64,000 bases of DNA from the NCBI RefSeq assembly GCF_963506605.1, contig NC_083277.1:7812001-7876000 (forward strand), written 5' to 3'. The position numbers and the translations under genes are program-made. Source of the stretch: Zootoca vivipara (Eukaryota). Under the pieces are notes generated by a model. The model was not told where the DNA came from and did no database searches. It worked only from the letters and a program-made list of their open reading frames with translations. Each line of letters starts with the position of its first letter. Within the stretch, counting starts at the first letter, position 1. Of the stretch, positions 2,285 through 58,589 are shown piece after piece.

Positions 2285-4540
2285 TCAACAACATAGACTC
2301 GAATAACAGAAATCCAAAGGGGCACAAAACAAGGATGCCCACTATCCCCCTTCCTATTTATACTAGCCCTAGAACCGCTAGCTATCCGAATCCGTGCAGC
2401 CACAGACATCAAAGGAGTGGAAATAAAAGGCAGAACATATAAATTAGGGCTCTTTGCAGATGACCTAATGGTCACAACATCAGACCCCTTAAACACAGCA
2501 ATCTCCCTAACCAGAGAACTCAACACATTTGCAACGGTGTCAGGCCTGCGAGTAAACTTTGCAAAATCAGAAGCCATGTGCTTCAATACTCCTCCCCACA
2601 CCCAGAAAGAACTCGCTAATATCACCAAAATAAAAATCTGTCACACCAAGTTCAGATACCTAGGGGTACAAATAACCAAAAATCTCAACAAATTATACCT
2701 CCACAACTATAAACCCTTGTGGCGACAAATAAACAAGGACCTAAAGAGATGGAACAACATGAATTTCACCCTCTCAGATAAAATGGCAATGATCAAAATG
2801 ATCACTCTCCCAAAATTAACCTACTTATTCCAAACCCTCCCAGTCTGGATCCCCCCAACCCAACTTCGCAGATGGCAGAGAAAACTACACTCCTTCATCT
2901 TCTCACATAAGAAACCAAGAATAAGCACCAAATACCTGCACCTCCCCACCTCACAAGGAGGATGGGGAATCCCTAACATAGAAACATATTACAGGGCCAA
3001 CCAAATTCGACATATAATCCCATATATACTGGAAGACGAGACAAAACAATGGATACACCTAGAGAGAGACACAATTGAAAGTATCTGCACCACAGCATAC
3101 CCACTCCTCCCAAACAAACTAAGAAAGATCCCCACAACACTTAATAGGTACACACAAACCATGTTCAAAGCATGGAAAACAGAAACGGACAAACTATCCC
3201 CAACCACATCCCCACTACTCCCCCTGGTCTACCATCCACTATTCCACCATGCAGCACAAAACATCCAAACAAAAACTTGGCAAACCAAAGGCCTATATCG
3301 CCTACTAGAATTTTATAAAAATAACACACCTCTGACAACACAAGAAATACAAGATAAACTAGAAGACACCCAAATACCCTGGTTAGCACAACACCAATTA
3401 CATGCCCTTTTGAACAAGCCAGCAATAAAACTAGCAGCAACAAGACCCCTGACACCCTTTGAAAATCTCCTCCTAACAACAAAGGGTCACGGCAAAGGGA
3501 TGGTATCTGCAATATATAAAATACTGCTCCAAAATCCCACAAACCCCCCAGACACAATAAAAAAAACAATGGGAAGACGACATAGGCTACGAGATTAACC
3601 CCACTCAATGGACCAGAATGTGGTCTAAACCCCCCTTTATATCCATATCAGCAAAAAGGAAAGAACTCACTCTGAAAACCATCTACAGGTGGTACCTAAC
3701 ACCACAAAAACTAGCACTAATACACCCAGGAACCTCATCAAAATGCTGGAGAGGATGCACCTCAACAGGCACATATTTCCACATGTGGTGGGAATGCCCC
3801 AAAACCCAACAATTCTGGAGAACAACCGTAAGAGAAATAGGTAAAATAACCCAACAAACATTAGAACTTACCCCAGAACTGGCCCTGCTAAACATCTTCC
3901 AGGACAATAACGCCCATCTACATCACAAAGAACTCATAACCCACTTACTCTCAGCAACCAGAAGCATCATAACCAGACACTGGAAAGACCTGTCAGGAGT
4001 AAGCATGGACCAATGGTACCAGACTGTATGGGAAACAGCCCTACTAGAAAAACTAACCAATAAGTTGAAACTGACACGGGGACAAATAGAAGAAGAGGGC
4101 TTCACCCCAATATGGTTCCCCTTCATCACATACACAGGCCAACAAGACAACGACAGAAATCCACCAACAGCATACAAATCAATTTGGCTAACCTGACCCA
4201 GAACACCCACCCACCCCACTCACATAAAACAGACCACCACAGCCAACCACAAAATAAAACTATATCCTAGGCCAACCCCAACAACTCTCACCACCAAAGG
4301 AAAACAAATGCACAACAAGGAACCTATGCAAGCATTGCTGACAACCCCCCCACACACACATTAAGTAAAACAGAAACATTGCCACACCCCCACACCCCCT
4401 TCCCTTATCTACCACTCCCCCCCTTTTCCTCCCCAATGTCTCAACAATTGAAACTGATCTGTAAAAATGTTATGAGAGACATTGTACACGTCTTTGTAAA
4501 CTGAGAAAACCTTCAATAAAAATATTTTTTTTAAAAAAAG

Positions 4541-6081: not shown

Positions 6082-6507
6082 CTTGTACTCCTCAGAAGCT
6101 TCCTCTAGAGGAATCACCTTGTGATTTTCATGTTCCTTTGATTTCTTACACTCCTCACAGATGGGGTCTTCGTGGACTTTGCAGAAGAGCTTCAGCGGCT
6201 CCTGGTGCTCCTCGCAGACTCCTCCTTTTCTTTCTTCTTCTTTCCCTTCTTGAACACTGAGATTCTTGGCTATTTCCACGAACTTTGCCAATTTCCCGCT
6301 GGGGATGAGGCTCCTTCTCTGAACTGTTTTTCTGCAGTGAGGGCAGGAAGCCTCTGCCTCCGATTCTCCTGAGCACTCGATCAGGCAGGATCGGCAGAAG
6401 TTGTGCCCACACTCCGGGCTGATCATTGGATCCTTGAAGTAATCCTGGCAAATGGAGCAAGTGGCTTCATCACGGAGACACTGGATGTAACCCCCAGAAG
6501 CAGCCAT
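6082..6507 (-). CDS. TRIM27/TRIM39-like E3 ligase copy A, exon 1 only (RING + B-box2, 142 codons); downstream exons absent from the window
   Basis: C3HC4 RING (CSICQDYFKDP...CGHNFCRSC...CPHCR) and B-box2 (CEEH...FCKVH...ICEEC...HENH). GT donor at 6081-6080, the same junction as in copies B and C. Confidence 0.88.
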
Positions 6508-6563
6508 GACTTCCTCACCCCAAACAGCCGAGTTAAGTTCTGCCTTCCCAGTTTTCAGCCACT

Positions 6564-6602
6564 GGGAGTTTCCTTTCCCGGAAATGACTCAGTGATCACG
6601 TG
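6564..6602. promoter_or_regulatory. Clustered immune-type TF motifs upstream of TRIM copy A: kB, GAS, AP-1, E-box
   Basis: GGGAGTTTCC 6564-6573 (matches GGGRNWYYCC), TTCCCGGAA 6575-6583, TGACTCA 6585-6591 and CACGTG 6597-6602, lying 57-95 bp upstream of the ATG. Largely conserved in the paralogs. Confidence 0.65.
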
Positions 6603-7117
6603 ATCTTTATCTTCTTTTTTTAAAAAAAAATATCTCCAGGTCTTTGCAGTTGCTGAATGTTTTCTCAAGGAGCAGCGAATGCTTTCTGATTGCTTCCCAT
6701 GTTTTTCATTACACACAAACACACACACACCTAGTAAGCTGTGGTATTCATACTGTAACATTTTCATTCAAAGGCTTCCTTGTCATATTTGAATTCTAGA
6801 AACTCTAACTGGATGGGAGTTCTGGTTTAGCAAACGGGACTTGATTCTGTGAAGTGAACTCCTAAAAGTCTGGTTGCTAATTCTAACTTAATTCGTTTTT
6901 AGCATGCTGGTTAAAGAACTTCAGATTGCAACAGACACTTTCAGCATTGCCAACCTGGTGTCCTCTGTTTGCTTCAGACTACAACTCCCATCCAGTGGTG
7001 GAGCATGTGCCCGCACTGCCCAGGTATAAATAAATCATCATCATCCTCCACCTAGTTCAGTGTTGTCAACAATGACTGACAGCAGCTCTCTAGGGTGATA
7101 GACAGGAAGCTTTTCCT

Positions 7118-9439: not shown

Positions 9440-10383
9440 TCAGGAGATACTGAGGGGAGTTTTATTTCCCCACAGACAAAAGAAAGGGAGGAGGGTCTCT
9501 CCAGAGAACGAGGCTCCTGAGAACGTGTAGAGTTCGGCTCCTGAGTCTGCGTCAGAAAAAGACACACGTCCCCCTTCATAGTCCAGAGTCACCCGGATCC
9601 TCCTGGGCTTCAGGGACAGAAGAGAGAAATCAGGGGAGGTGCGGACCCTGAACTCATCTCCCCTCTTCCACACAGCCCAGAACCCCTCCTCAGGGCATAT
9701 GCAGATGATGCCCTTTCTCTCCACAGACTTCCTGGCGACCCCCACTTCCCACCATTCCCCACTTTCCACATTGACTTCCCAGAAATGTCTCCCTGCTGTG
9801 AATCCCTCACGTCCCAACACACAAGGCCAGTTGCTGAATCTCTCAGGATTGTTGGGCAGGTCTTGCTTTTCGTCTCTATATCTCACACTTTTCCGATCCT
9901 CGGACAGGATGAGCCAGGGATGGGCTGTGTCTGGATCCAGAGTAACATTTGCTGTTGGGGAGAAGATGAGGGAAAGAGAAGATTAGGCAGAGTCATCCAT
10001 GAGACAGAAACAGACATCTTCTTAAAAAAACAACAACCCAAAACCCCAGATTCCCTTTCAGATAATTGGGATTTCTTTGCATCACTTGCAAGACTGAGAC
10101 TCCTTGCAGACTTTCATCAGAATAAATATCTTCCTTGTTGGTTTTTAAATCAGTTTTCTTCACTTATTTGATGTGTATTGTGTCTGCCCTCCTCTCAACC
10201 CAGGCATTTTCTAAGAGGAAAAACCACCCATTAAACCTTTTACTCAGCTCTTCTGTGTTAGTGAAGGAGAAAGAGAGGAGAATTGGAGGCGGCAGGAGAG
10301 GAGAGAAGCTGCTTTCCTCTGACAATCTCTGTGAGAATTGGCCTTTGGGGACCTCTGGGTTGGGGTGGGGGTGGGACCCCCCT

Positions 10384-10428
<45 letters not shown>

Positions 10429-10996
10429 TCGCATTTGCCTACTGCCCTTCATCCATAGGTCTCACGGTGGTTCACAGCATAAAAATACAACACAAAACAA
10501 CATATAGGCATCCCGCTCACTTTCACGGGGGTCATGTTCTGGGCCCACAAGTGAAAATCACACTAAGTGAGGAGCCTGTTTATTCCTGCTCTCCATCTCT
10601 CTCACCCACTTGGTCTCTCCTTGTCTTCCTACCATCTTGGAAGTTTAGGGCTTGCCGTCAGGGAAGAGGAGCAAGGTGGCAGGGCAATTTTACAAAGGAC
10701 TACTTATTCCATGATTCTCTTTTGGATTTAACATATAGCAGAAGACTAGTTCCCTGGGGGAAGGGGGGAATAACTCAAAAGGTTACCAGTTAGGGGCTTA
10801 GACAGTCATGATGCGCAAGTGTAGAGTTGCTGTATTCTGAAGAGCAAAAAAGAGGACACATTTGCCAACTTCTACTCTTAACCATGGATCGCTATGACGA
10901 CACTCATTTTAAATACCCCTACTCTATATAGACTTTCAAAGCTGTGATATATTGCTAGTAGCAATGTTCTGAACTTTCAATAATAATAATAATACC

Positions 10997-11037
<41 letters not shown>

Positions 11038-24198: not shown

Positions 24199-27100
24199 TG
24201 TTGTTGTTGTTTAGTCGTTTAGTCGTGTCCGACTCTTCGTGACCCCATGGACCATAGCACGCCAGGCACTCCTGTCTTGCACTGCCTCCCGCAGTTTGGT
24301 CAAACTCATGTTCATAGCTTCGAGAACACTGTCCAACCATCTCGTCCTCTGTCGTCCCCTTCTCCTAGTGCCCTCAATCTTTCCCAACATCAGGGTCTTT
24401 TCCAAGGATTCTTCTCTTCTCATGAGGTGGCCAAAGTATTGGAGCCTCAGCTTCATGATCTGTCCTTCCAGGGAGCACTCAGGGCTGATTTCCTGAAGAA
24501 TGGATAGGTTTGATCTTCTTGCAGTCCATGGGACTCTCAAGAGTCTCCTCCAGCACCATAATTCAAAAGCATCAATTCTTCGGCGATCAGCCTTCTTTAT
24601 GGTCCAGCTCTCACTTCCATACATCACTACTGGGAAAACCATAGCTTTAACTATACGGACCTTTGTCGGCAAGGTGATGTCTCTGCTTTTTAAGATGCTG
24701 TCTAGGTTTGTCATTGCTTTTCTCCCAAGAAGCAGGCGTCTTTTAATTTCGTGACTGCTGTCACCATCTGCAGTGATCAAGGAGCCCAAGAAGGTGAAAT
24801 CTCTCACTGCCTCCATTTCTTCCCCTTCTATTTGCCAGGAGGTGATGGGACCAGTGGCCATGATCTTGGTTTTTTTGATGTTGAGCTTCAGACCATATTT
24901 TGCGCTCTCCTCTTTCACCCTCATTAAAAGGTTCTTTAATTCCTCCTCGCTTTCTGCCATCAAGGTTGTGTCATCTGCATATCTGAGGTTGTTGATATTT
25001 CTTCCAGCAATCTTAATTCCGGCTTGGGATTCATCTAGTCCAGCCTTTCGCATGATGAATTCTGCATATAAGTTAAATAAGCAGGGAGACAATATACAAC
25101 CTTGTCGTACTCCTTTCCCAATTTTGAACCACTCAGTTGTTCCATATCCAGTTCTGACTGTAGCTTCTTGTCCCACATAGAGATTTCTCAGGAGACAGAT
25201 GAGGTGATCAGGCACTCCCATTTCTTTAAGAACTTGCCATAGTTTGCTGTGGTCGACACAGTCAAAGGCTTTTGCATAGTCAATGAAGCAGAAGTAGACG
25301 TTTTTCTGGAACTCTCTAGCTTTCTCCATAGTCCAGCGCATGTTTGCTATTTGGTCTCTGGTTCCTCTGCCTTTTCGAAATCCAGCTTGCACTTCTGGGA
25401 GTTCTCGGTCCACATACTGCCTAAGCCTGCCTTGTAGAATTTTAAGCATAACCTTGCTAGCGTGTGAAATGAGCGCAATTGTGCGGTAGTTGGAGCATTC
25501 TTTGGCACTGCCCTTCTTTGGAATTGGGATGTAGACTGATCTTCTCCAATCCTCTGGCCATTGCTGAGTTTTCCAAACTTGCTGGCATATTGGGTGTAGC
25601 ACCTTAACAGCATCATCTTTTAAAATTTTAAATAGTTCAGCTGGAATATCATCACTTCCACTGGCCTTGTTATTAGCAGTGCTTTCTAAGGCCCATTTGA
25701 CTTCACTCTCCAAGATGTCTGGCTCAAGGTCAGCAACCACACTATCTGGGGTGTACGAGACCTCCATATCTTTCTGGTATAATTCCTCTGTGTATTCTTG
25801 CCACCTCTTCTTGATGTCTTCTGCTTCTGTTAGGTCCTTACCACTTTTGTCCTTGATTATGGTAATCTTTGTACGAAATGTTCCTTTCATGTCTCCAATT
25901 TTCTTGAACAGATCTCTGGTTTTCCCCATTCTATTGTTTTCCTCTATTTCTTTGCATTGCTCATTTAAGAAGACCCTCTTGTCTCTCCTTGCTGTTTTTT
26001 GGAAATCTGCATTCAGTTTCCTGTATCTTTCCCTATCTCCCTTGCATTTTGCTTGCCTCCTCTCCTCCGCTATTTGTAAGGCCTCGTTGGACAGCCATTT
26101 TGCTTTCTTGCATTTCCTTTTCCTTGGGATGGTTTTCGTTGCTGCCTCCTGTATAATGTTACGAGCCTCCATCCATAGTTCTTCAGGCACTCTGTCCACC
26201 AAATCTAAATCCTTAAACCTGTTCCTCACTTCCACTGTGTATTCATAAGGGATTTGATTCAGATTGTATCTTACTGGCCCAGTGGTTTTTCCTACTTTCT
26301 TCAGTTTAAGCTGGAATTTTGCTATAAGAAGCTGATGATCTGAGTTACAGTCAGCTCCAGGTCTTGTTTTTGCTGACTGTATAGAGCTTCTCCATCTTTG
26401 GCTGCAGAGAATATAATCAATCTGATTTCGATGCTGCCCATTTGGTGATATCCATGTGTAGAGTCGTCTCTTGTGTTGTTGGAAGAGAGTGTTTGTGATG
26501 ACCAGCTTGTTCTCTTGACAGAACTCTATTAGCCTCTGCCCTGCTTCATTTTGAACTCCAAGGCCAAACTTGCCAGTTGTTCCTTTTATCTCTTGATTCC
26601 CTACTTTAGCATTCCAATCCCCTGTAATGAGAAGAACATCCTTCTTTGGTGTCATTTCTAGAAGGTGTTGTAGGTCTTCATAAAATTGGTCAATTTCACT
26701 TTCTTCAGCTCCGGTAGTTGGTGCATAAACTTGGATTACTGTGATGTTAAAAGGTCTGCCTTGGATTCGTATCGAGATCATTCTGTCATTTTTGAGATTG
26801 CATCCCATTACAGCTTTTGCCACTCTTTTGTTGACTATGAGGGCCACTCCATTTCTACTACGGGATTCTTGCCCACAGTAGTAGATATGATAGTCACCCG
26901 AACTGAATTCGCCCATTCCCTTCCATTTTAGTTCACTGATGCCCAGGATGTCGATATTTATTCTTGTCATCTCATTTTTGACCACATCCAGCTTACCTCC
27001 ACTCATGGTTCTTACATTCCAGGTTCCTATGCAATATTTTTCTTTACAGCATCGGACTTTCCTTTCGCTTCCAGGCATATCCGCAACTGAGCATCCTTTC

Positions 27101-27434
27101 GGCTTTGGCCCAGCCGCTTCATCAGCTCTGAATCTACTTGTACTTGTCCTCCGCTCTTCCTCAGTAGCATGTTGGACGCCTTCCGACCTGAGGGGCTCAT
27201 CTTCCAGCGTCATAACTTTTATATGCCTGTTGTCTTTGTCCATGGAGTTTTCTTGGCAGGGATACTGGAGTGGCTTGCCAGTTCCTTCTCCAGGTGGATC
27301 ACGTTTAGTCAAAACTCTCCACTATGACCTGTCCATCTTGGGTGGCCCTGCATGGCATAGCTCATAGCTTCTCTGAGTTATTCAAGCCCCTTCGCCACGA
27401 CAAGGCATTGATCCATGAAGGCATTGATCCATGA
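24199..27434 (-). mobile_element. Full-length BovB (RTE-clade LINE)
   Basis: 9-bp TSD AGAGCCTGT (24190-24198, 27435-27443); (CAA)n tail; BovB-type 5' end cttcatggatcaatgccttgtcgtggcgaagggg. Confidence 0.96.
24211..27243 (-). CDS. BovB endonuclease-reverse transcriptase, uninterrupted (1010 aa from the first ATG)
   Basis: APE endonuclease motifs GTWNVR, LGISE, GDWNAK, IDYIL, SDH; RT motifs FIDYAKAFD, GVRQGCILSP, YADD. Confidence 0.95.
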   Translation of the reverse strand: MDKDNRHIKVMTLEDEPLRSEGVQHATEEERRTSTSRFRADEAAGPKPKGCSVADMPGSERKVRCCKEKYCIGTWNVRTMSGGKLDVVKNEMTRINIDILGISELKWKGMGEFSSGDYHIYYCGQESRSRNGVALIVNKRVAKAVMGCNLKNDRMISIRIQGRPFNITVIQVYAPTTGAEESEIDQFYEDLQHLLEMTPKKDVLLITGDWNAKVGNQEIKGTTGKFGLGVQNEAGQRLIEFCQENKLVITNTLFQQHKRRLYTWISPNGQHRNQIDYILCSQRWRSSIQSAKTRPGADCNSDHQLLIAKFQLKLKKVGKTTGPVRYNLNQIPYEYTVEVRNRFKDLDLVDRVPEELWMEARNIIQEAATKTIPRKRKCKKAKWLSNEALQIAEERRQAKCKGDRERYRKLNADFQKTARRDKRVFLNEQCKEIEENNRMGKTRDLFKKIGDMKGTFRTKITIIKDKSGKDLTEAEDIKKRWQEYTEELYQKDMEVSYTPDSVVADLEPDILESEVKWALESTANNKASGSDDIPAELFKILKDDAVKVLHPICQQVWKTQQWPEDWRRSVYIPIPKKGSAKECSNYRTIALISHASKVMLKILQGRLRQYVDRELPEVQAGFRKGRGTRDQIANMRWTMEKAREFQKNVYFCFIDYAKAFDCVDHSKLWQVLKEMGVPDHLICLLRNLYVGQEATVRTGYGTTEWFKIGKGVRQGCILSPCLFNLYAEFIMRKAGLDESQAGIKIAGRNINNLRYADDTTLMAESEEELKNLLMRVKEESAKYGLKLNIKKTKIMATGPITSWQIEGEEMEAVRDFTFLGSLITADGDSSHEIKRRLLLGRKAMTNLDSILKSRDITLPTKVRIVKAMVFPVVMYGSESWTIKKADRRRIDAFELWCWRRLLRVPWTARRSNLSILQEISPECSLEGQIMKLRLQYFGHLMRREESLEKTLMLGKIEGTRRRGRQRTRWLDSVLEAMNMSLTKLREAVQDRSAWRAMVHGVTKSRTRLND

Positions 27435-31973: not shown

Positions 31974-34900
31974 TCAGGAGATACTGAGGGGGGTTTGAAG
32001 GTCATTCAGACGAAAGAAAGGGAGGAGGGTCTCTCCAGAGAACGAGGCTCCTGAGAACGTGTAGAGTTCGGCTCCTGAGTCAGCGTCAGAAAAAGACACA
32101 CGTCCCCCTTCATAGTCCAGAGTCACCCGGATCCTCCTGGGCTTCTCATTCAGGGACAGAGGAGAGGAAACAGGGGAGGGGAGGGCCACGTACTCATCTC
32201 CCCAATTCTCCAAAGCCCAGACCCCATCCTCGGGCCTTAAGGAGAAGAAGTAGCTCTTTCTCTTCACAGACTTCCTGGCGACCCCCACATCCCAAAATGC
32301 CCCACTTCCCACATTGACTTCCCAGAAATGTCTGCCTGCTGTGAATCCCTCACGTCCCAACACACAAGGCCAGTTGCTGAATCTCTCAGGATTGTTGGGC
32401 AGGTCTTGCTTTTCGTCTCTATATCTCACACTTTTCCGATCCTCGGACAGGATGAGCCAGGGATGGGCTGTGTCTGGATCCAGAGTCACATTTGCTGTTG
32501 GGAAGAAGATGAGGGAAAGAGAAGATTAGGCAGAGTCAGCCAAGAGACAGAAACAGACATCTTCTTAAAAAACAACAACAAAAACCCCAGATTCCCTTTC
32601 AGATCAATGGGATTTCTTTGCATCACATGCAAGACTCCTCCTTGCAGACTTTCATCAGAATAAATATTTTCCTTGTTGGTTTTTAAAATGGTTTTCTTCA
32701 CTTTCTTATATTCAGTGTGTATTGTGCCTGCCCTCCTCTCTCTCTCTCTCTCTTTTTTGTAGAGAAACTGTCACATCATTTATTTATTTTAAATCGTTCC
32801 GGTTTCATGGAATATGCATTCCAGAAGAATCAGTTATTTTTTAAAAAAATAAATCTTTATTTCAATTCTTTAAAATATTACATAAAAAAGAAAATTAAAT
32901 ACATAAAGAAATAATAATCGATTCGATCATATATACCATTCAAAAACATATAACTGAGAAACAAAAAATGAAAAAATAAACAAAACAATAATCAAAGAGA
33001 AACAAATAATACTCCAAAATTCCTAAATTTCAATCCAATAGCATCACCAAATAATATAAACATTTACAAATAACAGAAAAAAGAAAAAAGAAAAATAGCA
33101 CAAAAAATAAAAAAGATCTTAACATTTTCCTATTGTTTGTGCACCACTTTCCTTTATTTAACTTCTCGTCTTGCTTTATCTAAATTACTATTTACACATG
33201 TTCTCCGTATTTCCCTGCATATCTTTCAATCTAAACAAATAAGCAGATCAATATTTATCTCTTCTTTTTTCAAATAGCCCTCAACACTTTTCTGTGGGAA
33301 TTGGCCTTTGGGGACCTCTGGGTTGGGGTGGGGGATAAGGACCCCCTGTAGTAGTAGTAAGTAGTAGTAGTAACAATAATATCACACTTGCCTACTGCCC
33401 TTCATCCATAGGTGTCAGGGTGGTTAACAGCATAAAAATATAACACAAAACAACACATAGGCGTCCCCACACTTTCGCGGGGGTCATGTTTTGGGCCCAC
33501 AAATGAAAATCACACTAAGTGGGGAGCCTGTTTATTCCTGCTCTCCATCTCTCTCACCCACTTGGTCTCTCCTTGCCTTCCTACCATCTTGGAAGTTTAA
33601 GGCTTGCCACCAGGGAAGAGGAGGCAGGTGGCAGGGCAATTTTACAAAGGACTGCTTATTCCATGCTTCTCTTTTGGATTGAATATATACCATAAGTGTG
33701 CACAGAACAATTTATTAAACTGTTAAACATCTGCATATGGACTCTCCTTAAGGGCAGGGGGATGTTAACTCTTGCCCTCCCAGACTCCTCCTCAAAGATC
33801 TTGTAGCTGAACCAGCGTCCTTTTAGTTCAGCCACAAGAAAAGGGTTGTTGCTAGCTTAAGATGTTGCTCTGTTGCAATACTCTGCTCTAGGCTAGGTGG
33901 CTTACATCTGAATCTAATGCACTGGAAAAATTTTCTAGTCTGAGAAAAAGAGGACACGTGGCAACCAGTCCTGAAAAAGGTCACATGGAAAAACAACCCA
34001 ACTCTAGGCAGGAATGAAACTCTTCCCTACTCAGTCTGATCCTTCTGGGTTATTTATCTCTCCCCCTTCTGCATCTTCAAGTCCACCCTCTCTGCCTTTG
34101 TGGTACAAACAGCAGGGACTAGAGTCAAGTTGTACAGAAGAGACTCTTTACGCCCCCCATGAAACACTAGTCCCCCCCTCCTGTGAATTGGGGTCTCCAT
34201 GTAAAATTTAACTCTCTGAAGATTTCTGAATGGCTGAACATCTGAGGAAGCAAAAATGCAATAGCTAAAAAATAATAAATATTTTTTACAAAACATCACC
34301 ATAACATAGCGTCTGTTGTTTCCTTATTTCAAGCAAAAGATGAAATCATAGAAGAAATAATTGCAAAAACAACAACTGTAGGCCTGTGTAGTGATGTTAA
34401 ATATTCTCCAAAAGATTATTCTCAATAATTTAATATCACTAGGCATAAGGAAATAACTAACTTGTTTAGCTGTAATTCTTGCATTGCAGGGGGTTGGACT
34501 AGATGATCTTTGTGATCCTTTCAAACTCTGCTATTCCATGATTCCATGGGAAAATCAGAAATGGTAAAACATACTAGAAAATGGCGGAATCCAATCATTC
34601 AAAATCCACAAATGAAATGCATAGCTGCCAAGTTATCCCTTTTTTTAAGGGAAATTCCCTTATGCTGAATAGGCTTCCTCGTGAGAAAAGGGAAAACTTG
34701 GCAGCTATGGAAATGGGGACCTGTACTGGAGGGCTGGAGGAAGGTTTAACATCTGCCCCAAGTAAACTGGTGGGGAAAAGCTGTTGAAACCGGAATTTCC
34801 AAGCATGCCGAAGTTTGGGGATGCCTGGACTAGATGATCCTTGGGATCCTTTCAAACTCTGCTATTCCATGATTTCAGAAATGGTAAACCATACTAGAAA

Positions 34901-37900
34901 ATGGGAAAATACAATCATTCAAAATCCATGAATAAAATGGGGACCTGTACTGGAGGAAGGTTTAACATCTGCCCCAAGTAAACTGGTGGGGGGGAAAGAA
35001 TTTCCAAGTACTGTATGCTGACAAACCAGATTGCAGAGGAAGAATCGGCAGAGTTTTGCACTGTAATTCCAAGGGTCTCGTGCAATGGGAAGTCCTCCCT
35101 TGTGGAATGGGGCCGATCTCAAAAGAATTGTGGGGACTCTCAGGCGACTGGGATGGCTGAAGCACCAGAAATGGCTGGTGAGGTTGAAACTGAGGAAGAG
35201 GGGGCTCTGGGAAACCAGCCTGGCAGGAGGTGGAGGAGGGACTGGGTGCTTGCGGGTGCCCCTTTTAACACACTTCACAAGCGGGAAATTCAAGCAAATC
35301 TTGAGAAGCCCCAAAAAGAACCTTTCCAGATTGTGTGGAGGGGAAACAAAATGCAAGGGAGGTTCCATTTGAATCAGAACATTGTAATGATCGAGCAGGA
35401 TTCTCCTTAAGGGCTTTTATAAGATATTTTAAGGCTCTGAGGCTTTTCCCCAGAATCAAGCAATATATAAATTTTATGAAAGAAAGCAAAATCTATTAAA
35501 TCAAGGGGGAAACCAGCATAATAGTTTATAGGCAGGAATGGAACACAAGACTGGCATGCAGGTTCTTCGTGGGGACAAGCTCTGCCTGCAATCCAAGCCT
35601 TCAAACCCTCTCCAGGTTCATTCATGGGACAGACAAAGAACCCAAACACCACTAGAGGACTGTTACCCACAGTTACGCCATTGATGGGGGTCCCAAAGTC
35701 TGCAGAACAGACGGTTCAACACCCATGAAATATCAGCCCCCATCCCTCCTATGAAATTGTTCCCCCTGGAAATTTACCTTTCTGAATCTGTTTTCTGAAT
35801 AACAGAGCATCTGAGGAAGCAAAAAAGATATAAAGTGTAAGGGCAACACTCTTCCACCTGAAATAAATCTCTACACAAAAGTAACACTTCATAACGTGGC
35901 ATCCTTAAATTCAAGTGTGGTCAAACCTCGGTTTTCGATCGTCTCTGTTACTGTACGTTTTGCGAGAGCCGCGCCTCAGAAATTGACCGTTTTGGAAGTC
36001 GAACATCCTTCTGGAGTAGATTACATTCGACTTCCAAGGCTTGACTGTACAATTATTAAATAGTACAGTGGAACCTCAGAAGCCGACCACCTTTGAACTC
36101 AAACGCTTCAGCTCCCGAACTATAGAAAAATGTAAGTGATTGTTTTTCGGAAGCTAAACATCTTGCACGGCTTCCGCAGCTTCTGATTGGCTGCAGGAAG
36201 CTTCTTCAGCCAATCGGAAGCCACACCTTGGTTCTTGAACCATTTCAGGAGTTGAACCGACTCCTAGAATGAATTAAATAAAAGAACCGAGGTACAACTG
36301 TAGAAAAAATAATTAAAAACAAGAAAATAATAGGAAGAATCTATGAAAATAACTAAAGCTTTAAAACTCAGCAATCATAAAGCACGCTTACAAATAATAG
36401 AATAAAAATATTCAGCATGAATCCTGATGGTCTCTGAACTTTGTCCCTGAAATTGGGCTCTACATTCTTGGACTGGAGGGGAGGCAAAGCAATAGGAATC
36501 CTGTAAAAGGAGGCAGAGGGGAGATGGAGGCAGCCTTAACATCTTCCCCAAGCAAAGTAGTGGGGTAAATTATTAAAACCAAAATTGTGAAACATAAGGA
36601 GAAATAAAGGTTGATGAGGAAGGCTTGGCCGAGGTCTCATGCAAAAGGAAGCCCTTCCTCACAAACCTTTTAAAAAAATCTTTCAGATTGTTACCAAGCA
36701 TAATTGTGCCCTTTGGGGCTCATGTGCTCTTGCTTCCATCTTCCATGTGGAAACTCAGGAGATCTTGAAGGCTGAAGCCCTAGATAGGGCAGCTGCAGGG
36801 GGACGTCTGAGGAGGAGACGGCTCAGGCCTTGGCTCCATTGCTGAGAAACAAACCTGAGCAGGAGACAGGGGGTTGGACTGGATGGCCCTTGTGGTCTCT
36901 TCCAACTCTATGATTCTATGACAGAGGGGGAACTGGGGGCTTCTTAATGCCCTTTGACTCCATTCAGAGCAGGAGAACCTCCAAAAGGACAACCCCAGAT
37001 TGTGTAGACTGGTAACCAAAAGGAAAAGGAGGTTCTGTATAATTGACGAGAGATGCACATGGGAGGAAAAAATCCTAACTTTGCTTTCTTTACAAGCTCC
37101 AGCGTCACAATGTACATGGGCCATTCTGGGGGACAGGAAATGAAGGCTGGAGCACCGAGAAGGAAGGTATCCTTGGGTTCCTCAATTCCATGCAATAAGA
37201 GCCTGGCATGTTCAGTTCTGAAGGAAGAATACAATTCCCAGTGTGAAACCCTGGCAGCCATTTTTCATTACCTTTCCATTGTTTCATTGCATCCTCCACA
37301 AGGTGATTTAGATCACAGGATTCCAAGATCCTGTTCCTCAGTTCTGGAGGGAAAGGCAGTGGCTTCTCTGGACTCTCTCTTTTCTCATACCTGGTGAAAA
37401 GAAAAACAAATTATACACATTGCAAAAGTAAAACCAAACCTCACAAAGGAAATGGCACTAATTCATTGGGGAGAATTGGGGTGCTACAAGTTCCAAAGAG
37501 GGGGTCCTGTTTTACCTGGGAAACCAAACAGATTATTATTATTATAAATTCTTATTATACCTGTGAGATGCTACAGGGAGTGAGTTCTAGGGCTGTCTTA
37601 AGCATTCCCCGTTGCTTGTTGATTGAAAATGCCCCGTGTATCTTAAGCACGTGCAGCGCGATCCTAAGCAGGTTTGAATGCAAGAGTGAAACAAAACTCT
37701 GAAGCAAGCTTCCCCCCCGCCCCTTGCCGGCAATAGTCATTTACACTGCCCTAGGAAAGGCCTCCGTTGAACCCAGTGGGACTTACTTCAGAGTAAAGTT
37801 GGTCGCAAGGGATCAGGGCCCTGCCTGCCTTGGGCTTCAAAAGAACTCCTAGATGTCTCCCCAACCTGATCCCAGAGTTTGATGTACCCTTCATATCCTA

Positions 37901-40900
37901 AAGGGGATTGCCTTTCGGGTCTGGGATGAATTTTGAGGGAAAGAGCAAATTTATCCCCGCCTTGAGCTATGAGCTATACTTCACTCAATGGGAGGGGAGG
38001 GGAGGGAACGGAAGGGAAGGGAATGTCTCGGGGGCGAAATTGACCATATGCTTAAAATGAGTGGACGTGGATGGCCGTTGTGTGTTGAGTGTTTGTGCAT
38101 CACTTCCACCAGGGCTCAGGTAGGAGCTAAAGTCTGTAATTTTCTCCTCCGTCGCACCATTAAAAACAGGTTGCTTTTTTCAATTAAGAGCTGCCTTCAG
38201 CCCCAGTCAGTTCTCCTAATGACAATACATTATATTTTCACTGTTCTCTCCCCCCCCCCAACTACACGCACACGCACAACCCCCAACTCCGAAAGAATGG
38301 GAAATCCTATGTTTTCATTAGACGTGATTAGCGAGAAAGTCCAAGAGGGAGGGAAATGATTTAAGGGGGGAGGGTTCTTGTCTGAACTAAATACCGGGAC
38401 CTTCTTCTTGTTTATTACTGTATTATTAAACCACCACGCTTTTAAATAAATTGGGATTTCGTACAGAAAGGTGGAGGGGCGAGGAGGCTGGTCGATGTGG
38501 CTTCCTTCAGATTAAATGCAGACCACAGCGATGGTCATTTAACCGACCTGATTGGATCTGGTGTTGGGGGTGAGGTGCGAGAGAATGATGATGATTTTTT
38601 AAAAGCAACTTTCCTCCACTCTTAGCTGCTGCCGGCAGCTTTGCGGGGCTGGAGGAGGCGGGCAGCGGCTGGAAGGCGGTTCCTCCAGTGGGGAAGAGGC
38701 GGAGGCTCCAGACACGGCGCCCAGCCTCTGCCTCTTCCCTGGCGCCCATGCCTTGGTGGCCACGGCAGGCGGAGGCTTTGGGCACAGCACTGCTTTGGCG
38801 CAGTGGACGAGGGCGGAGAGCTTGGCACTGTGGATCCCCGCGCCACTAGCCTCTATGGCTAAGACGCCCCTGGAGCACCATGTTTGAGGTTCTTGCATCA
38901 CGGCCTCATGGAGGGATGCTAATGAGAATGAGCCAGATCCACTTACCTCTGAAAGGTTCTTCTCATATCCTAGAGGGGGAAAGAGAAGGGAATTCACTGC
39001 ACACCACAGGCCACACTAGGAAGACCCTCTCAGACCCTGGAGTGGACGAACAGCCTGGCCCTCGGATGTCAGTCTGCCTGACACATGCCAAGGTTTTGGG
39101 TAGGGATGGTGGAATCAGCCAGTTTTGGTTTCTCACAGCTTTTATTTTTTCAACCTGAAATTATCAATTTTTCCAATATCAAGTTCTCCACATTTCCACA
39201 TCAGTTTGCAATTCTTGTTTAAAATCCTTATGAAAATCCACCAGCATTTAAGGGAATTTCACATTTGTGGATTCAATAGAAGATTCCAACCCATCTCATG
39301 TCTTAGATTATAATTTATTACAGTAATTTGAATCCAGTTTGCACTGTGCAATTAAGATGTAAGTAAGCCTACAGGATAATCCTACCAAGGAACTGTCCCA
39401 AATTGTCTTCCATAGAAGTCCCCAAATATCAAATTCTATTCTCCAACTGGAAATAAAAAAGCACCTGCAGCATAAAATGCCTCCAAAGGTGTAATAAAAC
39501 AGCTCAGTGTTTATTTGGGCGCATCCACACTTCTGCTTCTCCTGTGCCCAGAAAACACGGGTCCAAGTGGTTTTGCCTTTGCCCTGCCACTTTCCCTCAG
39601 GAAAAACCTGCTCCTTAGTGCAACATCAAAGCAAACGTCAATCTGGAGAAAACCTGGCTGATGTTTGCTCTCATTCAGCAGTAAACTGCGGCTTTTCCTG
39701 GCGGAAAGGGGTGGGACAAGCAGCAGTCTGGATGAGTCCCTCTGTCTTGCTCTTTGATCACTGTGACTGAGCACCATTTTGGGCCGATCTGGATCCATTG
39801 TGAAGGTGATCAACCCAGAAGTTGTGGAGGGAACAGGAAGAGAAGCTTGGTCAAGAGACTGGCTCATGTCGGAAGGAGGCCTGGATGCATCTTTGGCGAA
39901 GCCCAGCCCAGGGTAGGAAGGCAGCATTGCCAAGCAGGAAGGAATTTCGAGACAAATCATCAGCAAAGAGCAGAAAACCACCTCCAGTTCCATCAAGACC
40001 ACAGAAGAATCTCTGGTCTGCATTCAGGTGAGTTAAGCATCCCAGGTCTCTTGGGTCTTCCTGTCCATTACCGGTACAAACCTGAGTAGAGGCTCCATCA
40101 ACTGAGCCCCTGAACTCCTTGTATACATGAAAGGGGCACAGAAAGGATGGCAGGCAGCCTTTTCCTGGAGCCTTGGGCTGTTCCTGCCACCGTCTTACCT
40201 GCAGGAGTTCACTCACTGGCTGCTGACCCTTTTCCTCCATCTCCTGGATTATCTTCTCAAGGGAGGAGAGTTTCCTGGAGAGTCTGGCCAGCTGCTCATC
40301 CCTTCTCCCTGCAATCTCCTTCTCCACCTCTTCCACACAATTCAGCCGTTGTTTTTCTTCTTCTTCCAGGAACTGGCGGAGTTCTTTGAACTTCTCCACA
40401 GTCTCCAGCTTCTCCGTTTCTGCTAATTTCTGCAAAAAAAGAGGAGGTCTGAGTGTGGACGATGGTCAGCCTTCAAAACAGCAGGAAGAAAATGATGAGA
40501 ATTCCACAGGGAGGGCACTTCTGATTTTTCAGAGACATGAAACGTCCAGTGGCTAAAGAAGTAAACATGTATTCTGTGGGGTGGCCCTCTCCATTGCTCT
40601 TTCTGTTGACTTCTATTCGCAGAGGGCTACTGCCTAAAGCAGGTGTAGGCAATCAAAGGCCCAGGGGCTGGATGCGGCCCAATCACATTATCAATCCGGC
40701 CTGCAGACAGTCTGGGAATCAGCGTTTTTTTACATGAGTAAAATGTGTCCTTTTATTTAAAATGCATCTCTGGGTTATTTGTGGGGCCTGCCTGGTGTTT
40801 TTACATGAGTAGAAATGTGTGCTTTTATTTAAAATTCATTTATGGGTTATTTGTGGGGCATAGGAATTCATTCATTCCCCTCCCCAAAAAAAAACATAGT

Positions 40901-43047
40901 CCAGCCTACCACATGGTCTGAGGGACGGTGGACCGGCCCACAGCTGAGAAAGGTTGCTGACCCCGGACAAGGAGCTTTTTCCCTAGCCACGGGTATTTCC
41001 TGCATGTTTTGGGGCATGGCATAAGCAGAGTTCATAGTTGTCCAGAGAACATCCATGGACATAAAACACCCCTCAGTTCAAAGTGGAACCATTAAGGTGT
41101 AGGAAGGCAACAGAAACAGAGGAGGATGAGGAGGAGAAAGTGTAGAGTTTATCCCCATAGCTCCCCTGTTTCCTTTAAAGGTTCAAAATGCCCAGAGTTT
41201 CCTAAAAATGAACAAGAGTGCACATTTAGAAAGACAATTCTTTAGTAATATTTATGGTAAATCCGGATTTGGACTGATTTGCTTCCACCCTGGCCTGGCG
41301 GAGGATTTGTGGAATATCTGAAGGAATATTATGAAAATATGAACACACCAGTAGGTTTACTTTAAAAAATACAACAAATATATGTATAGCCGTTGTCAAA
41401 AATGTATATTTGAAATTGATATATGAGAAAGACAGGCAAGAAAGAGTAAAGCACCGAAACCTGAAAGTTGGAAAAATAAAACCAAGAGAGAGGAAAGAGG
41501 AAGTCAAGTTTGAAAGAACAAGTTTAGAGGAAAAGACTATATAGGAAGAAAAGGAGAGGTAAATAAGGTACGACACATGGTATTATTTGTAAAGTATCTT
41601 TATTTGAGATTTTTTTTTCTGTATGAAACCAATTTTTATTTGTATATCAAAATATCTGTACAATAAATAAAAGCAATAAAAATGGGGGGGGGGAGATTTG
41701 CTTCCACCCTCTCAGCTCACAAGAGTTCAGGCTTCTCCTTGACTACTTTTCACATAATGAATGACAAGGGGAAATAAATTCAATTTAGCTTCATTCAAAG
41801 GTGAACTTACCTAATTTGCTATTGCTGAATAAATATGGAGACCAAAACAGAGCAATCCTATGAAATTCACACCTCTTATATTTTCAAGGTTGACCCAGCC
41901 AGGTAAATCCATTTATGAGGGTAAAGTACAGATCAAAGTATTTATACATTTTCAGAATAATAAATTAATAAACAGAAATAGGGAGAAGCTGAAATGGGCA
42001 GATTTCCCCATCCCTCATCAGTACTGACTCGATTCTTCAAGTGCTTGTTCCCTCACTAGTAACAATACAGACACTTACCAGGAGGTCTTTGCTTTCCTTG
42101 TCCAGGTCTGCTTGATAGGCCAGAATTTCCTCTCTCTCTTTCCTCAGAATCTCCAGACGGCGACAGATCTCTCCCTAAAGAGAAAAGGGAAAACTCAGGT
42201 TTGATTGAGACACACAGAGACAAGATGAATAGTATGCGGGCTTTGCTATGCTGTAGTAGCAAAGTACTGGAGGAAATAAAAGTCCAGAGGTTTCCAACCT
42301 TTTTGGGTCCACGACTCCCTGAACCAGCTACCTTTTTTCTATGGGGCTCAGGGACCCAGTTAGTCCCCTCTTGCTTACAGACTTCTACATAGTCTTTGCA
42401 GATGCTACTCAGGGATATCAAGGGAGATCCCTTTGTCCCCCTGGCAGAAAGATTTCAACTCCCTCCTCTCAGTCATCCCAGGAGCCCCCAGGCTTCCCCT
42501 TGGCTGCTTTTTACATAATAAACAACCACCAATTCATGTCATGCCTACTTTGGACCTGAGAATTAAAAATAAAACCTCCCAAGAAGAATCCACAGCTATT
42601 TCTCATCCTAAAGATCCAGGGATCTCCTACCTTGTATTCCTCGAAAGCCTCCTCCAAAGGAATCACCTTGTGATTTTCATGTTCCTTTGATTTGTCACAC
42701 ACCAGGCAGATGGGGGCTTCGTGGACTTTGCAGAAAAGCTTCAGGGGCTCCTGGTGATCTTCGCAGACTCCTCCTTCTCCCTTTCCCTCTTGAAGGCTGA
42801 GATTCTGGGCTATTTCTACCACATTAGCCAGTTGCCGGTTGGGGATGAGACCCCTTCTCCGGACTCTTTGTCTGCACTGAGGGCAGGAAGCCTCTGCCTC
42901 CGATTCCTCCCAGCACTGGATCAGGCAGGATCGGCAGAAGTTGTGCCCACACTCTGGGATGGTCACTGGATCCTTGAAGTAATCCCGGCAGATGCAGCAC
43001 GTGGCTTCATCACGGAGACGCTGCAATTGACCCCCTGCAGCAGCCAT
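31974..43047 (-). CDS. TRIM27/TRIM39-like E3 ubiquitin ligase copy C (RING, B-box2, coiled coil, PRY/SPRY); 479 aa
   Basis: Exons 43047-42631 (417 nt), 42174-42079 (96), 40429-40199 (231), 38969-38947 (23), 37390-37272 (119), 35810-35778 (33), 32494-31974 (521). Canonical splice sites, consistent phases, no stops. Confidence 0.92.
34620..34709. mobile_element. 90-bp MITE (inverted second copy at 54723-54812)
   Basis: TIR CATAGCTGCCAAGTT. The 54723 copy has an 8-bp TSD CAACTATC, consistent with hAT. Confidence 0.8.
36066..36300. mobile_element. Degenerate Tigger/pogo-like MITE; related copies near 58137-58343 and 59580-59822
   Basis: ta-cagtggaacctc ... gaggtacaactg-ta termini. Confidence 0.65.
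41292..41694 (+). mobile_element. Short L1-type 3' fragment
   Basis: 16-bp TSD GATTTGCTTCCACCCT (41276-41291, 41695-41710); ORF2-end-like codons followed by an A-rich UTR; absent from copy B. Confidence 0.75.
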
Positions 43048-43099
43048 GGCTCCTTCGCGCCAAAGAGCCGAGTTAAGTTCCGCCTTCCCAGTTTTCAGC

Positions 43100-43142
43100 C
43101 ACGTGGAGTTTCCCTTCCTGGAAATGACTCAGTGACCACGTG
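43100..43142. promoter_or_regulatory. E-box, kB, GAS, AP-1, E-box cluster upstream of TRIM copy C
   Basis: CACGTG 43100-43105, GGAGTTTCCC (GGGAAACTCC on -) 43105-43114, TTCCTGGAA 43115-43123, TGACTCA 43125-43131, CACGTG 43137-43142. Confidence 0.65.
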
Positions 43143-45160: not shown

Positions 45161-47188
45161 TTAGAACAGAGTCTGGCTGTTTATGCAGCTCGAGCCGGTC
45201 TGAATTATCTGATGTGCAAGAAGGTTCTGCTCATCGCTGAAACTTTTCCCACAGTGAATACCCTGGTGTCTAGTGAGGCTGGATTCAAAAGCAAAGCTTG
45301 CCCAGCAGAGCGGACACTTGAATCTTTCGTTCCCTGCATGGACCCTCTGGTGCCTGCTGAGACGTAACTTGTAGCTGAAGGTTTTCCCGCAGTCTGCACA
45401 CTCAAAAGGTTCTTCCCCTGCATGGATCGTCTGACGAATATCCAGATTTGAGCTCCACCTGAAACTTTTTCCGCAATTGACACAGTCGTGCGGCTTCTTC
45501 CTGTGGTGGAGCCCCTGGTGCCGTGCAAAGTTTTGGCTGTGGCTGAAGCTCTTCCCGCACGTGAGGCACTCGTGGGGCTCCCCCCGCCCGTGTAGATCCT
45601 CTGGTGTGCAATGAGGCTCGTGTTCCAGCGGAACCTCTTCCCGCAGTCTGAGCACTTGTAGGGCTCCTCTCCTGTGTTGATTCTCTGATGCCAGAGAAGG
45701 TTTGATTTGCGGCTGAAGCCTTTTCCGCAAACACCGCAGGTACTCTGCTTCTTCTCCAGCCGCGGTTTCTGATGATCTCGTAGAACGCTCCAAACTGGCT
45801 TAGCTGGCTGGCGATGAGTTTCTGGTTCCACATCTCCATTCAATTCACTCCCTCGAAGTCGTCTCGATTCTCAGTGTCAGCTTCCTCCTCTCCTCTCTTA
45901 ATTCCTTCCAACCACACCTCATGCAATTCCCAATCCTTCTCAGTTCTCCAAGCGTCATCTGTTGGAATAAAAATAAAATGAGTATGTACGGGTGTGCATG
46001 CACATGTGTTCAGAGCCACAGAATTGTAGAGCTGGAAGGGACCGAAGGGTCATCTAGTCCAACCCCCTACAAAGCAGGAGTCACAGCTAGAGAATCCCTG
46101 GTCTCTACTGGCAGCAGCCATTCCAACCGCCTACAGCAGAAGTCCCAGTAAAGGAAGAACGGATACCAAAACTTATGGAATATGCAGAAATGGCGAAACT
46201 TAGTGGAAGAATAAAAAAACCAAGCTATCAAACTCTTTATAAAAAAATGGAAATGGTTTATTGAATATATACAGAAAAATTGTAAACAGATAAAACCATT
46301 AGTAGGATTATTGTAATAAACTGCGGTTTTATAAGAGTATATATTTATTGTTCTTCCTCTGCCTTTCTTTGCCCCAGAAGGAGCCCCTTGGCCAGGGCCA
46401 CTGCCTGGGAACAGGTCTTCGGGCCTCCTTCCTGGACCCAGCTCTGCATCTCCGGCGGCAAGCCGGCCAAGAACTGCTCCAAGATCACGAACTCCACGAT
46501 CTGCTCCCTGATGTGCCTCTCTGGCTTCAGCCACTGGTGGCAGAGGTACCAGAGGCGGCTGCAGACCTCGCGGGGGCCCTCGGCCTCCTGGTAGCGGAAC
46601 CAGCGGAAGCTCTGGCGCTGGGCCTCCATACCGAGGGCAGCCTCTTCCTTCAGTTGCCGGTCTCTGCCAAGGCCAGCCAGGTTGCTCCTGGAAGGCCAGT
46701 TGGGGAGCCAGCCCCCCTGCTCTGCCCTAATCTGCTGGCCAATGGAACGATGGGGAAGGACGATTTTGCCGCCACCCCACAGTACAGCCTGTGGGTCGCC
46801 CCAATCCGACCCGGGGAACTGCGAGGTCTTCAGGAACGCCTGCTACTAGGCTTCCCAGTGCCGAGACAACACCCCCTCGGTCTGTTCCTGCTTCATCTGT
46901 TCCACGGTCCGCCTCAGAAACTGCCCCATGGCGCCCGCTTGGCCTTCTTCCTTGAGACGACAGGCATATGATTCCTCGCTCTCAGGTGTCAACCCCATTT
47001 GAAGCCCCCGCTCTAACGTAGCTGGGAACTGAAGGCAGGAGGCTGAGGGTTCCCTGACTCATGCTAGAGCCATGTCCGCTTAGAGGGACGATTCGAACAC
47101 AGCTCTGTCCCTCGCTAGTGTGCAGTGTGGCAGAGGGTGATGGGCCTGCGCTTGGCCTTCCAGAAAAAGAGGGGCCAGAGCTCACCAT
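45161..47188 (-). pseudogene. SCAN and C2H2 zinc-finger (ZSCAN-like) pseudogene
   Basis: SCAN domain in ORF 46345-46629. The upstream WEAQWQ motif is mutated to WEA**Q (two TAG codons at ~46844-46849). The SCAN-exon donor is missing, with an L1 3' fragment (~46150-46345) in its place. The finger exon (start 45958) is split over two frames. Confidence 0.85.
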
Positions 47189-48540: not shown

Positions 48541-54066
<5,526 letters not shown>

Positions 54067-57050: not shown

Positions 57051-58589
57051 GTGAGTTGCAGAAAGGATAGTTCCATAACCATTGCAGCAGCAGCAGCAGC
57101 AATAAAAATAAGGCTGGCTCCCTAGAGAGGCTGCTTAAGATTGCTGCCACGTGTTTACCCAGAAGTAAGGCCCCGTAGGATTCAATGGGGACCCTTCCCA
57201 AGTAAGTGCGTGCAAGGTTGCAGGTTGTAATCCTGTATCCGCTTCTCTGGGAATAAGCCCCCATTGAACTTCGTGGGGCTCGCCTCTGAGCGGACATGTA
57301 GAGAATTGGGCTCGAAATTTAGAAACTATGTGGGGTTTGTGGGGGTGTTTCTCCCCCACCCCCATATCGACTGGGGAGATTGCATCCAATCCTAAAAGGA
57401 TTCCCCTTTTTTGTTTCCTAAATCGATTGGGACTAGATTTGGGATGTCGTGTTTTCCATTTCCCAAAGGAGCTGGGAAGTGTGCCACGTTAAAGTTAGCT
57501 TGTATCCTGCCATGCAGATTTTTTAATGTCTCCTCTCTGTGACTTTTAACTTATTTTAAATTGGTTTTTAGCGTTCTGTTTTAATTGTTGTAACCTGTCC
57601 TGTGACCTTGGAGTGGAGGGCAGGTAATAATAAATCATTGTAAGTCCTCCTCAGGGTGGGCCCATTAAGTTAGTCATGTCTATTAACTTGCCTATCTGGA
57701 GTGTGTTCATTTGTTGGGGGATGTTCTAAAAGCACATACACCCCCCCCCCAAAAAAAATTCCTTGGCAGATCCTGTATCTACAATTCATGGTTTACTTGG
57801 CAGTTTATTATTATTGTTGTTGTTGTTACTGTAATTGAATTAATCTTGTTGAGTTCATTGGGGCTATGTGTTTAGAATTTTCAGTCCCCGCGAAAGCAAA
57901 CATTTAATCTCCGCTAAAATTTTGTTACTTGCCTACGATACTCAAACTCAAAAATGTTTAAACATTGTTTTATTATTATTTTCTTCTTTTATATAAGAAT
58001 ATTTTGCATTGATAAAAAAGTAAAATTCAATAAAAATTATTTAGTTTAGTGGCGACTAGTGGAAACTTTAGTTTTACCCAAATAGGAAGTTCTAACTGCC
58101 ATGCTGAGTTGTTGATCTGCTGTTTACAAATAAATACAGTGCACCCTCTGGATATGAACTTAATTCGTCCTGGGGGTCCGTACTTACCCTGAACAGTCTG
58201 TATCCAGAGGTGCCGCTTCTGCGCACGTGCGTGGCGTGATAGAGTGCTTCTGCACATGGGCAAAGTGCACAGAGTGCATTTGCAGATGCGCGCGCAGCGA
58301 AACCCGGAAGTGTTTGCTGCGTTTGCAACCTGAAATTACATTATGTAACCTGAGGTACCACTGTACATCTATTCGGGGGGGGGGGATGTTTAAACGTTTT
58401 AAAGAAACAAAAAATCTCAAGTGAGAACCACTGTAACCTTCGTTTGAGGAGCCATTTGGCACCTAGCTTTTATATCTGAGTTTCTAACACTGGTGTTGCC
58501 TTCCCTGAGGCATCTGAAGCGCCACTCTGGGATTCGAGACTTGGTGGATGGATCTCATTGGTGCTGCTGTGTTTATTTTCTTAGATCCA

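Follow-up and report, generated by a model that had tools for sequence, protein, structure and literature searches.

A conserved motif block above MHC-linked TRIM genes of Zootoca vivipara, a probable interferon-type proximal promoter

The motif block just above the start codons of three TRIM genes of the common lizard is probably the conserved proximal promoter of an MHC-linked C-IV TRIM family, of interferon type through STAT and IRF factors. The window, that is, the whole stretch of DNA analysed, covers 64,000 nucleotides of contig NC_083277.1 (positions 7,812,001 to 7,876,000 of the forward strand), and the three genes are named A, B and C here. The block is a proximal promoter because most RNA 5' ends lie just downstream of it, by the ATG. 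Judging from the elements in the sequence, genes A, B and C are likely to be cytokine-inducible.

Genes, array and motif block

The exons were located with the help of an intronless full-length relative of 490 aa (L031). The matching exons amount to 479, 486 and 479 aa in A, B and C, with RING, B-box, PRY and SPRY in one open frame, as in C-IV TRIMs. Pfam matches were obtained on exon 1 of all three genes, and on the full-length retrocopy L031 they comprise RING, B-box, PRY and SPRY. A protein identical to L031 is annotated as 'zinc finger protein RFP-like' of Zootoca vivipara, and the closest relatives are lacertid.

6082-6507, minus strand: coding exon 1 of gene A (RING and B-box), in a 479-aa open frame whose other exons, from exon 2 on, precede the window start
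9440-21873, minus strand: gene B, with 8 coding exons (417, 96, 231, 23, 119, 33 and 30 nt, and the PRY/SPRY exon); 486-aa open frame
31974-43047, minus strand: gene C; the donor of exon 7 is TT, not GT, and leaving out this exon gives an open frame of 479 aa

Exon 7 of gene C, with its TT donor, is located at 34210-34241; exons 6 and 7 resemble a tandem exon duplication, and gene A has no exon 7. Intron 1 of gene A measures 8.7 kb, compared with 0.5-1 kb in B and C, because a young LTR element and a LINE fragment were inserted into it. The LTR element (92-2284) has two 365-bp repeats, 99% identical, which flank a copia-type reverse transcriptase frame (RVT_2), and the LINE fragment comes next, at about 2468-4538. 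The DNA that separates genes B and C holds an open frame of 1010 aa from a LINE, encoding endonuclease and reverse transcriptase (24211-27243, minus strand). SCAN-domain exons of zinc-finger genes are also found amid the TRIM array (48541-49443 and 58548-59306 on the plus strand, 46386-46617 on the minus strand).

In the whole genome, 38 matches were found for the promoter region and at least 160 for exon 1 (150 of 221 candidates scored). Of the fetched TRIM loci, about 100 are located on C2, from 6.3 to 17.9 Mb. Exons of MHC class I cluster at C2 4.66-6.14 Mb, the TRIM exon-1 matches begin at 6.33 Mb and the window lies at 7.81-7.88 Mb; this tandem array adjoining MHC class I has the form of the MHC-linked TRIM expansions of reptiles.

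A preliminary description of the window had reported four motifs packed into about 40 bp of copy A, and all four are present at 6564-6602. The block lies 57-95 nt above the ATG at 6507, and genes A, B and C are all on the minus strand. The labels kB, GAS, AP-1, E-box and KLF/SP are given here by general consensus patterns.

6564-6573, plus strand: copy A, kB-like 10-mer GGGAGTTTCC; only the GGAAA part is under constraint
6569-6578, minus strand: copy A, ETS/IRF-type composite GGAAAGGAAA, overlapping the GAS and the kB-like site; in 23 of 29 close paralogs
6575-6583: copy A, GAS TTCCCGGAA; half-sites kept, spacer variable among paralogs
6585-6591: copy A, AP-1 site TGACTCA; in 24 of 29 close paralogs
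6597-6602: copy A, E-box CACGTG; in 24 of 29 close paralogs
6536-6549, minus strand: copy A, degenerate ISRE with 3 mismatches to RNGAAANNGAAACT
21902-21915, minus strand: copy B, perfect ISRE, GAGAAAGTGAAACT
21930-21976: copy B block, with KLF/SP-type box 21930-21935, GAS 21941-21949, AP-1 21951-21957 and E-box 21971-21976
43076-43142: copy C block, with degenerate ISRE 43076-43089, extra E-box 43100-43105, GAS 43115-43123, AP-1 43125-43131 and E-box 43137-43142

For the ISRE, the consensus RNGAAANNGAAACT is taken from PMC2654144, which surveys human TRIMs. In agreement with the preliminary description, B (21941, 21951, 21971) and C (43115, 43125, 43137) again contain GAS, AP-1 and E-box, and GGAAnnGAAA is read on the minus strand of A (6578) and C (43118) only, while B is without it. 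Generally, the GAS pattern TTCnnnGAA is kept in most close paralogs (26 of 29). The same description had let the homology between copies end about 170 bp further upstream and had taken the module to be duplicated with each gene. The distance is right for A versus B and C, but six other paralogs align with A at least to 6890-6900. This end of homology is not a module border, because it is specific to A versus B and C, and B and C are whole-gene duplicates, introns included.

The ISRE, the kB site and interferon data

An element absent from the preliminary list, an ISRE at -42..-29, has 0 mismatches in B, 2 in C and 3 in A. With no more than 1 mismatch and at -62..-19, it is found in 37 of 104 paralogs, while the share of background 44-nt windows with such a match is 0.04-0.3%. 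By group, the numbers are 16 of 29 among close paralogs, 3 of 8 among intermediate ones, 13 of 19 and 1 of 6 in the 12-Mb and the 13.9-Mb clade, respectively, and 4 of 42 among distant ones; L016, L033, L054, L102 and two retrocopies were left out of the motif counts, which are not independent events, as clade members have common ancestry. Copies with an intact ISRE include B, L005, L006, L018, L022-L024, L026 and L030, and those with a degenerate one include A, C, L019, L028 and L029. The ISRE keeps a fixed position across clades with fourfold-site differences of up to 0.57. It is the strongest and oldest element of the block and has been lost in copy A.

From sequence comparison, ISRE and GAS/GGAAAC can be regarded as the old core, and E-box and AP-1 as marks of the young clade, because the 12-Mb clade retains ISRE and GAS (GAS in 9 of 19) while its E-box is absent (0 of 19) and AP-1 is rare (2 of 19). 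The upstream DNA of this clade is mostly beyond blastn alignment, yet ISRE and GAS are retained. Within the young clade the ISRE columns are unconstrained (2.72 changes), because several copies carry a GGGAAGGCGGAAC variant. Such a GGGAAGGCGGAAC-like variant occupies the ISRE place (about -42..-29) in L001, L003, L004, L010, L013, L019, L027 and L029, on different branches, and this replacement may be due to gene conversion or a regulatory switch.

The kB site, which the preliminary description counted in the module, does not hold as a family element. Of the 29 close paralogs, 10 have a strict match, and of the 75 paralogs outside this group 1 does (1 of 8 intermediate, 0 of 19 in the 12-Mb clade, the next one, 0 of 6 in the 13.9-Mb clade and 0 of 42 distant), and the 3' half varies like the flanks (2.5-3.1 changes per column). 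An NF-kB-responsive promoter with a conserved GGGRNNYYCC was therefore rejected. The same place reads ACGCCC or ACACCC in 10 of 29 close paralogs and in 11 of 19 of the 12-Mb clade, compared with 2% in the background, and this frequent form (GGAAAC-N-CCC) looks like a KLF/SP box in sequence.

Two sequence marks of an interferon-stimulated promoter were scored. The ISRE qualifies in B and in the 16 close paralogs counted above, and fails in A and C; the GAS is under constraint, with 0.83 changes per column in the half-sites versus 3.0 in the spacer (28 paralogs). Data from iguana cells treated with interferon for 6 h point the same way: in the accessible supplement of PMC12262214, 23 of the 34 'protein RFP' rows listed, and all 4 'TRIM7-like' rows listed, have log2FC >1 and padj <0.05. 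These rows are isoform clusters tied to the lizard clade solely by automatic gene names, and some probably belong to the harbiTRIM locus. The annotation names in the lizard array are 'zinc finger protein RFP-like' or 'TRIM7/11-like'. The preliminary description considered the genes innate-immune effectors, a role that family, location and the iguana data would favour.

Among the other explanations, a real promoter that is constitutive or tissue-specific, with USF/E-box, AP-1, ETS, KLF or IRF2-type basal drive and little cytokine response, at least in A and C, keeps the most weight, although we consider it unlikely. It would agree with the expression of the family in three RNA runs for which no stimulation is known, with the degenerate ISREs of A and C and the 13 of 29 close paralogs that have at least 2 ISRE mismatches, and with the 11 of 34 listed iguana RFP-like rows that are not induced; moreover, according to the accessible text of PMC6668374, IRF-2 drives basal transcription of human TRIM14 via its ISRE. 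However, the GAS half-sites are under constraint, the ISRE position is fixed across divergent clades, and the majority of the listed iguana rows are induced.

Compared with known systems, the block resembles human ISRE-driven TRIM promoters (accessible parts of PMC6668374, PMC3356915 and PMC2654144) in having an ISRE just above the start, a GC/KLF-type box nearby and a GAS in the same region. In human TRIM14, for example, an ISRE at -27..-17 is accompanied by a GC box (PMC6668374), while in human TRIM22 a consensus GAS and one ISRE are reported as dispensable in the accessible part of PMC3356915. Unlike these human promoters, the lizard promoter exists in dozens of copies, one per tandem paralog, and individual copies have lost different elements; AP-1 and E-box are additions of the young clade, the 5' UTR is very short, and the promoter's role is predicted from sequence.

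The array itself is like the reptile MHC-linked C-IV TRIM expansions (RING, B-box and PRY/SPRY, a lineage-specific array beside MHC class I), for which the accessible text of PMC10445537 gives 67 TRIMs adjoining MHC class I for the eastern fence lizard, with 228 for a turtle. 'ISRE' occurs 0 times in the main text of that paper, and the shared promoter is an addition of the present analysis. TRIM is likewise found 0 times in an Anolis MHC paper (PMC9679377), and TRIM or RFP 0 times in a Python organoid paper (PMC13562644). A literature search, largely of abstracts and thin for subscription journals, found no description of this shared promoter.

The harbiTRIM antiviral ligases are squamate C-IV TRIMs that are interferon-induced in iguana (bioRxiv 10.1101/2025.06.23.661133; PMC12262214 supplements), and the window genes are likewise squamate C-IV TRIMs on the same contig arm. 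By eye, the published common-lizard harbiTRIM N-termini correspond to L066, L067, L077, L080 and L081 at C2 17.68-17.73 Mb. These five loci are about 10 Mb from the window and have 47-53% exon 1 identity with the young clade, which rules out the window genes as harbiTRIMs. In L066 and L067 (C2:17.72-17.73 Mb), an ACGCCC box and an ISRE both fall within 80 nt of the start codon, in an arrangement that resembles the one in the MHC-proximal clades; in the other three of the five, only weaker reverse-strand matches to this layout were found.

Constraint among paralogs and transcription starts

In 150 simulated 64-kb windows (third-order Markov), 0 four-class clusters within 45 bp were obtained and three-class clusters appeared at 0.007 per window, with an analytic estimate of chance of about 2e-6; these figures are inflated, as the motif classes were picked after the sequence was seen. 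Conservation is therefore the better test. If the motifs had been no more conserved than flanking bases, the preliminary description would have lost its ground; in fact, the motif columns are about 3 times more conserved than flanks and intron.

In 28 close paralogs, the 29 motif columns of the preliminary description show 1.16 parsimony changes versus 2.51 in other upstream columns (permutation p 3.5e-4), and this mask ranks 1 of 116 slid positions. By element, the changes per column are 0.83 for the E-box, 0.57 for AP-1 and 0.8 for GGAAA, beside the GAS values given above. In 27 paralogs, 24 core columns show 0.75 changes versus 2.4-2.8 in other upstream columns and 2.2-2.4 in intron 1, with p about 1e-6 on three trees; this core mask, without the kB 3' half, was defined after the first constraint data had been seen. 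Against fourfold sites (1.6-2.1 changes) the difference is marginal for the core (p 0.04-0.05, 27 paralogs), and p is 0.16 for a mask that includes the whole kB site. Neither the columns nor the paralogs are independent of one another, and the trees may be distorted by gene conversion. L012 and L025, with an insertion in the module, were left out of the constraint alignments, and L022 was also left out of the 27-paralog set.

These data bear on the idea that the block is neutral sequence from recent whole-gene duplication and gene conversion, with chance motifs inherited once. The close paralogs are indeed young (fourfold-site difference 0.15), they have the whole upstream DNA to -250 in common, the motifs were picked post hoc and the fourfold sites are slow too. 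However, conversion would homogenise all bases, yet motif bases change 3 times less than the interleaved ones, and ISRE and GAS persist beyond the alignable flanks, so that we regard neutral inheritance as very improbable.

Transcription starts were studied in about 6% of each of three stranded RNA runs, labelled with the same species and from one study (X16, X17 and X18; the contig run X12 was not counted), with reads mapped on A at 88% likeness and on B at 80%.

21874-21900, minus strand: copy B, inferred zone of main transcription starts, from the fall in X16 read depth
6685-6687, minus strand: minor splice acceptor of copy A, with its AG at 6687-6686 and 6685 as the first exonic base, 178 nt above the ATG; 3 X18 reads join 6082 to 6685

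On copy A, the X16 depth is 100 at 6480-6509, 5.6 at 6510-6539 and 0 above; nearly all of these reads come from paralogs, since A has no more than 2 reads at >=99% identity in any run. Copy B has 71 such reads in X16. The non-L037 reads on B in X16 number 97 at +4, 8 at -9, 2 at -23 and 0 at -31, and B-allele reads fall from about 45-50 at +24..+28 to 0 at -10. Most RNA 5' ends are thus within about 10 nt of the ATG, between +4 and -9, at the resolution of RNA-seq as distinct from CAGE. RNA-seq usually loses terminal bases. Because of this loss and of the ends near the ATG, we infer starts at about -10 to -30, just downstream of the elements as in an interferon-stimulated promoter, with a very short 5' UTR.

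Some reads extend further. In X17, about 5 reach -31 and one about -110; in X18, 3-4 cover -130 to -178; and 34 L037-type reads pass through the block. The joint from 6082 to 6685 would represent either a circular RNA of 604 nt or transcription that reads through from an adjacent paralog. In X18, about 1/3 of the depth at 21691-21870 is on the opposite strand, which suggests antisense transcription of some paralog in this sample.

Two intronless copies contain the block. L031 (C4:35253068-35254980) is an intact intronless TRIM retrogene of 490 aa with AATAAA and an A-tract, flanked by a target-site duplication of 13 bp that contains one mismatch. The copy starts 212 nt upstream of its ATG, within the final 35 nt of a dispersed repeat whose insertion at this site is confined to L027 and L029. 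GAS and a near-ISRE are retained in L031, but E-box and AP-1 have been lost. L032 (C6:7382450-7385300) is decayed, with stops and insertions, and includes the block from about -178. As proof of an upstream main start the two retrocopies were rejected, because the repeat in which L031 begins is one that only L027 and L029 have here, and because the RNA-seq disagrees. L031 is like the promoter-inheriting retrocopies that, in the accessible text of PMC4772013, make up about 3% of expressed mammalian retrocopies, as it comes from an upstream start and takes the downstream promoter along; unlike in these, its expression from the carried promoter is a prediction. Two other loci are unusual. L037 (C2:8923400-8923550) has an inverted exon 1 piece at -125..-163 and neither E-box nor AP-1; transcription of this paralog begins upstream and passes through the block. 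L033 (C15:32613090-32613400) is isolated DNA from upstream of -180, with no TRIM exon within the 5 kb fetched.

That the block is part of a 5' UTR or signals a splice acceptor directly before the start codon, with the true promoter farther upstream, is likewise very improbable: L031 and L032 indicate that some mRNAs included the block, the L037-type reads traverse it, 3 reads use the acceptor at 6685 and copy A has TTAAC at -29 and AG at -7, but the depth decays gradually toward the ATG with no joint or loose end near -6 among the rows listed, B-allele reads drop to 0 at -10, and both L031, through its repeat, and L037, with its rearranged upstream region, are special cases. A splice acceptor at -7 as the cause of the RNA ends finds no support in the depth shape or in the loose ends listed.

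Proposed mechanism and meaning

As a proximal promoter of interferon type, the block would work as follows. The ISRE at -42..-29 would be the target of ISGF3 or IRF1/2, the GAS at -76..-68 that of STAT dimers, and the overlapping GGAAAnGAAAC that of an IRF/ETS factor. Basal or stress input would come from the KLF/SP box, AP-1 and the E-box, and transcription would start 10-30 nt above the ATG. Single copies have lost elements (A and C the ISRE, B the composite), and such losses would likely tune the copies differently. The data directly show the motifs and their constraint, intact genes, expression of the family, RNA 5' ends by the ATG and the place beside the MHC; interferon induction, STAT/IRF binding, copy tuning and an antiviral role are predicted from these features.

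A wider proposal is tentative, and we put it at somewhat below an even chance: one ancestral promoter of ISRE and KLF box, common to two genes of the harbiTRIM locus, may have been copied along the 11-Mb array, which would make about 40 uncharacterised MHC-linked TRIMs an interferon-induced antiviral battery, re-tuned per copy as the ISRE was kept or swapped for the GGGAAGGCGGAAC variant and AP-1 and E-box were gained. A repeat-driven upstream start would also have allowed an intact retrogene to reach another chromosome together with an interferon promoter of its own.

The promoter type is textbook and the expansion of reptile TRIM genes is already known; the shared promoter of this family appears to be new. 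Antiviral immunity of reptiles is poorly mapped, and strong flavivirus restriction was recently demonstrated for one squamate TRIM family. A shared, readable promoter predicts which of the roughly 100 unnamed MHC-linked TRIMs would be interferon-induced and gives a priority for tests, and the paralogs form a natural series of promoter variants for studying the regulatory divergence of duplicated immune genes.
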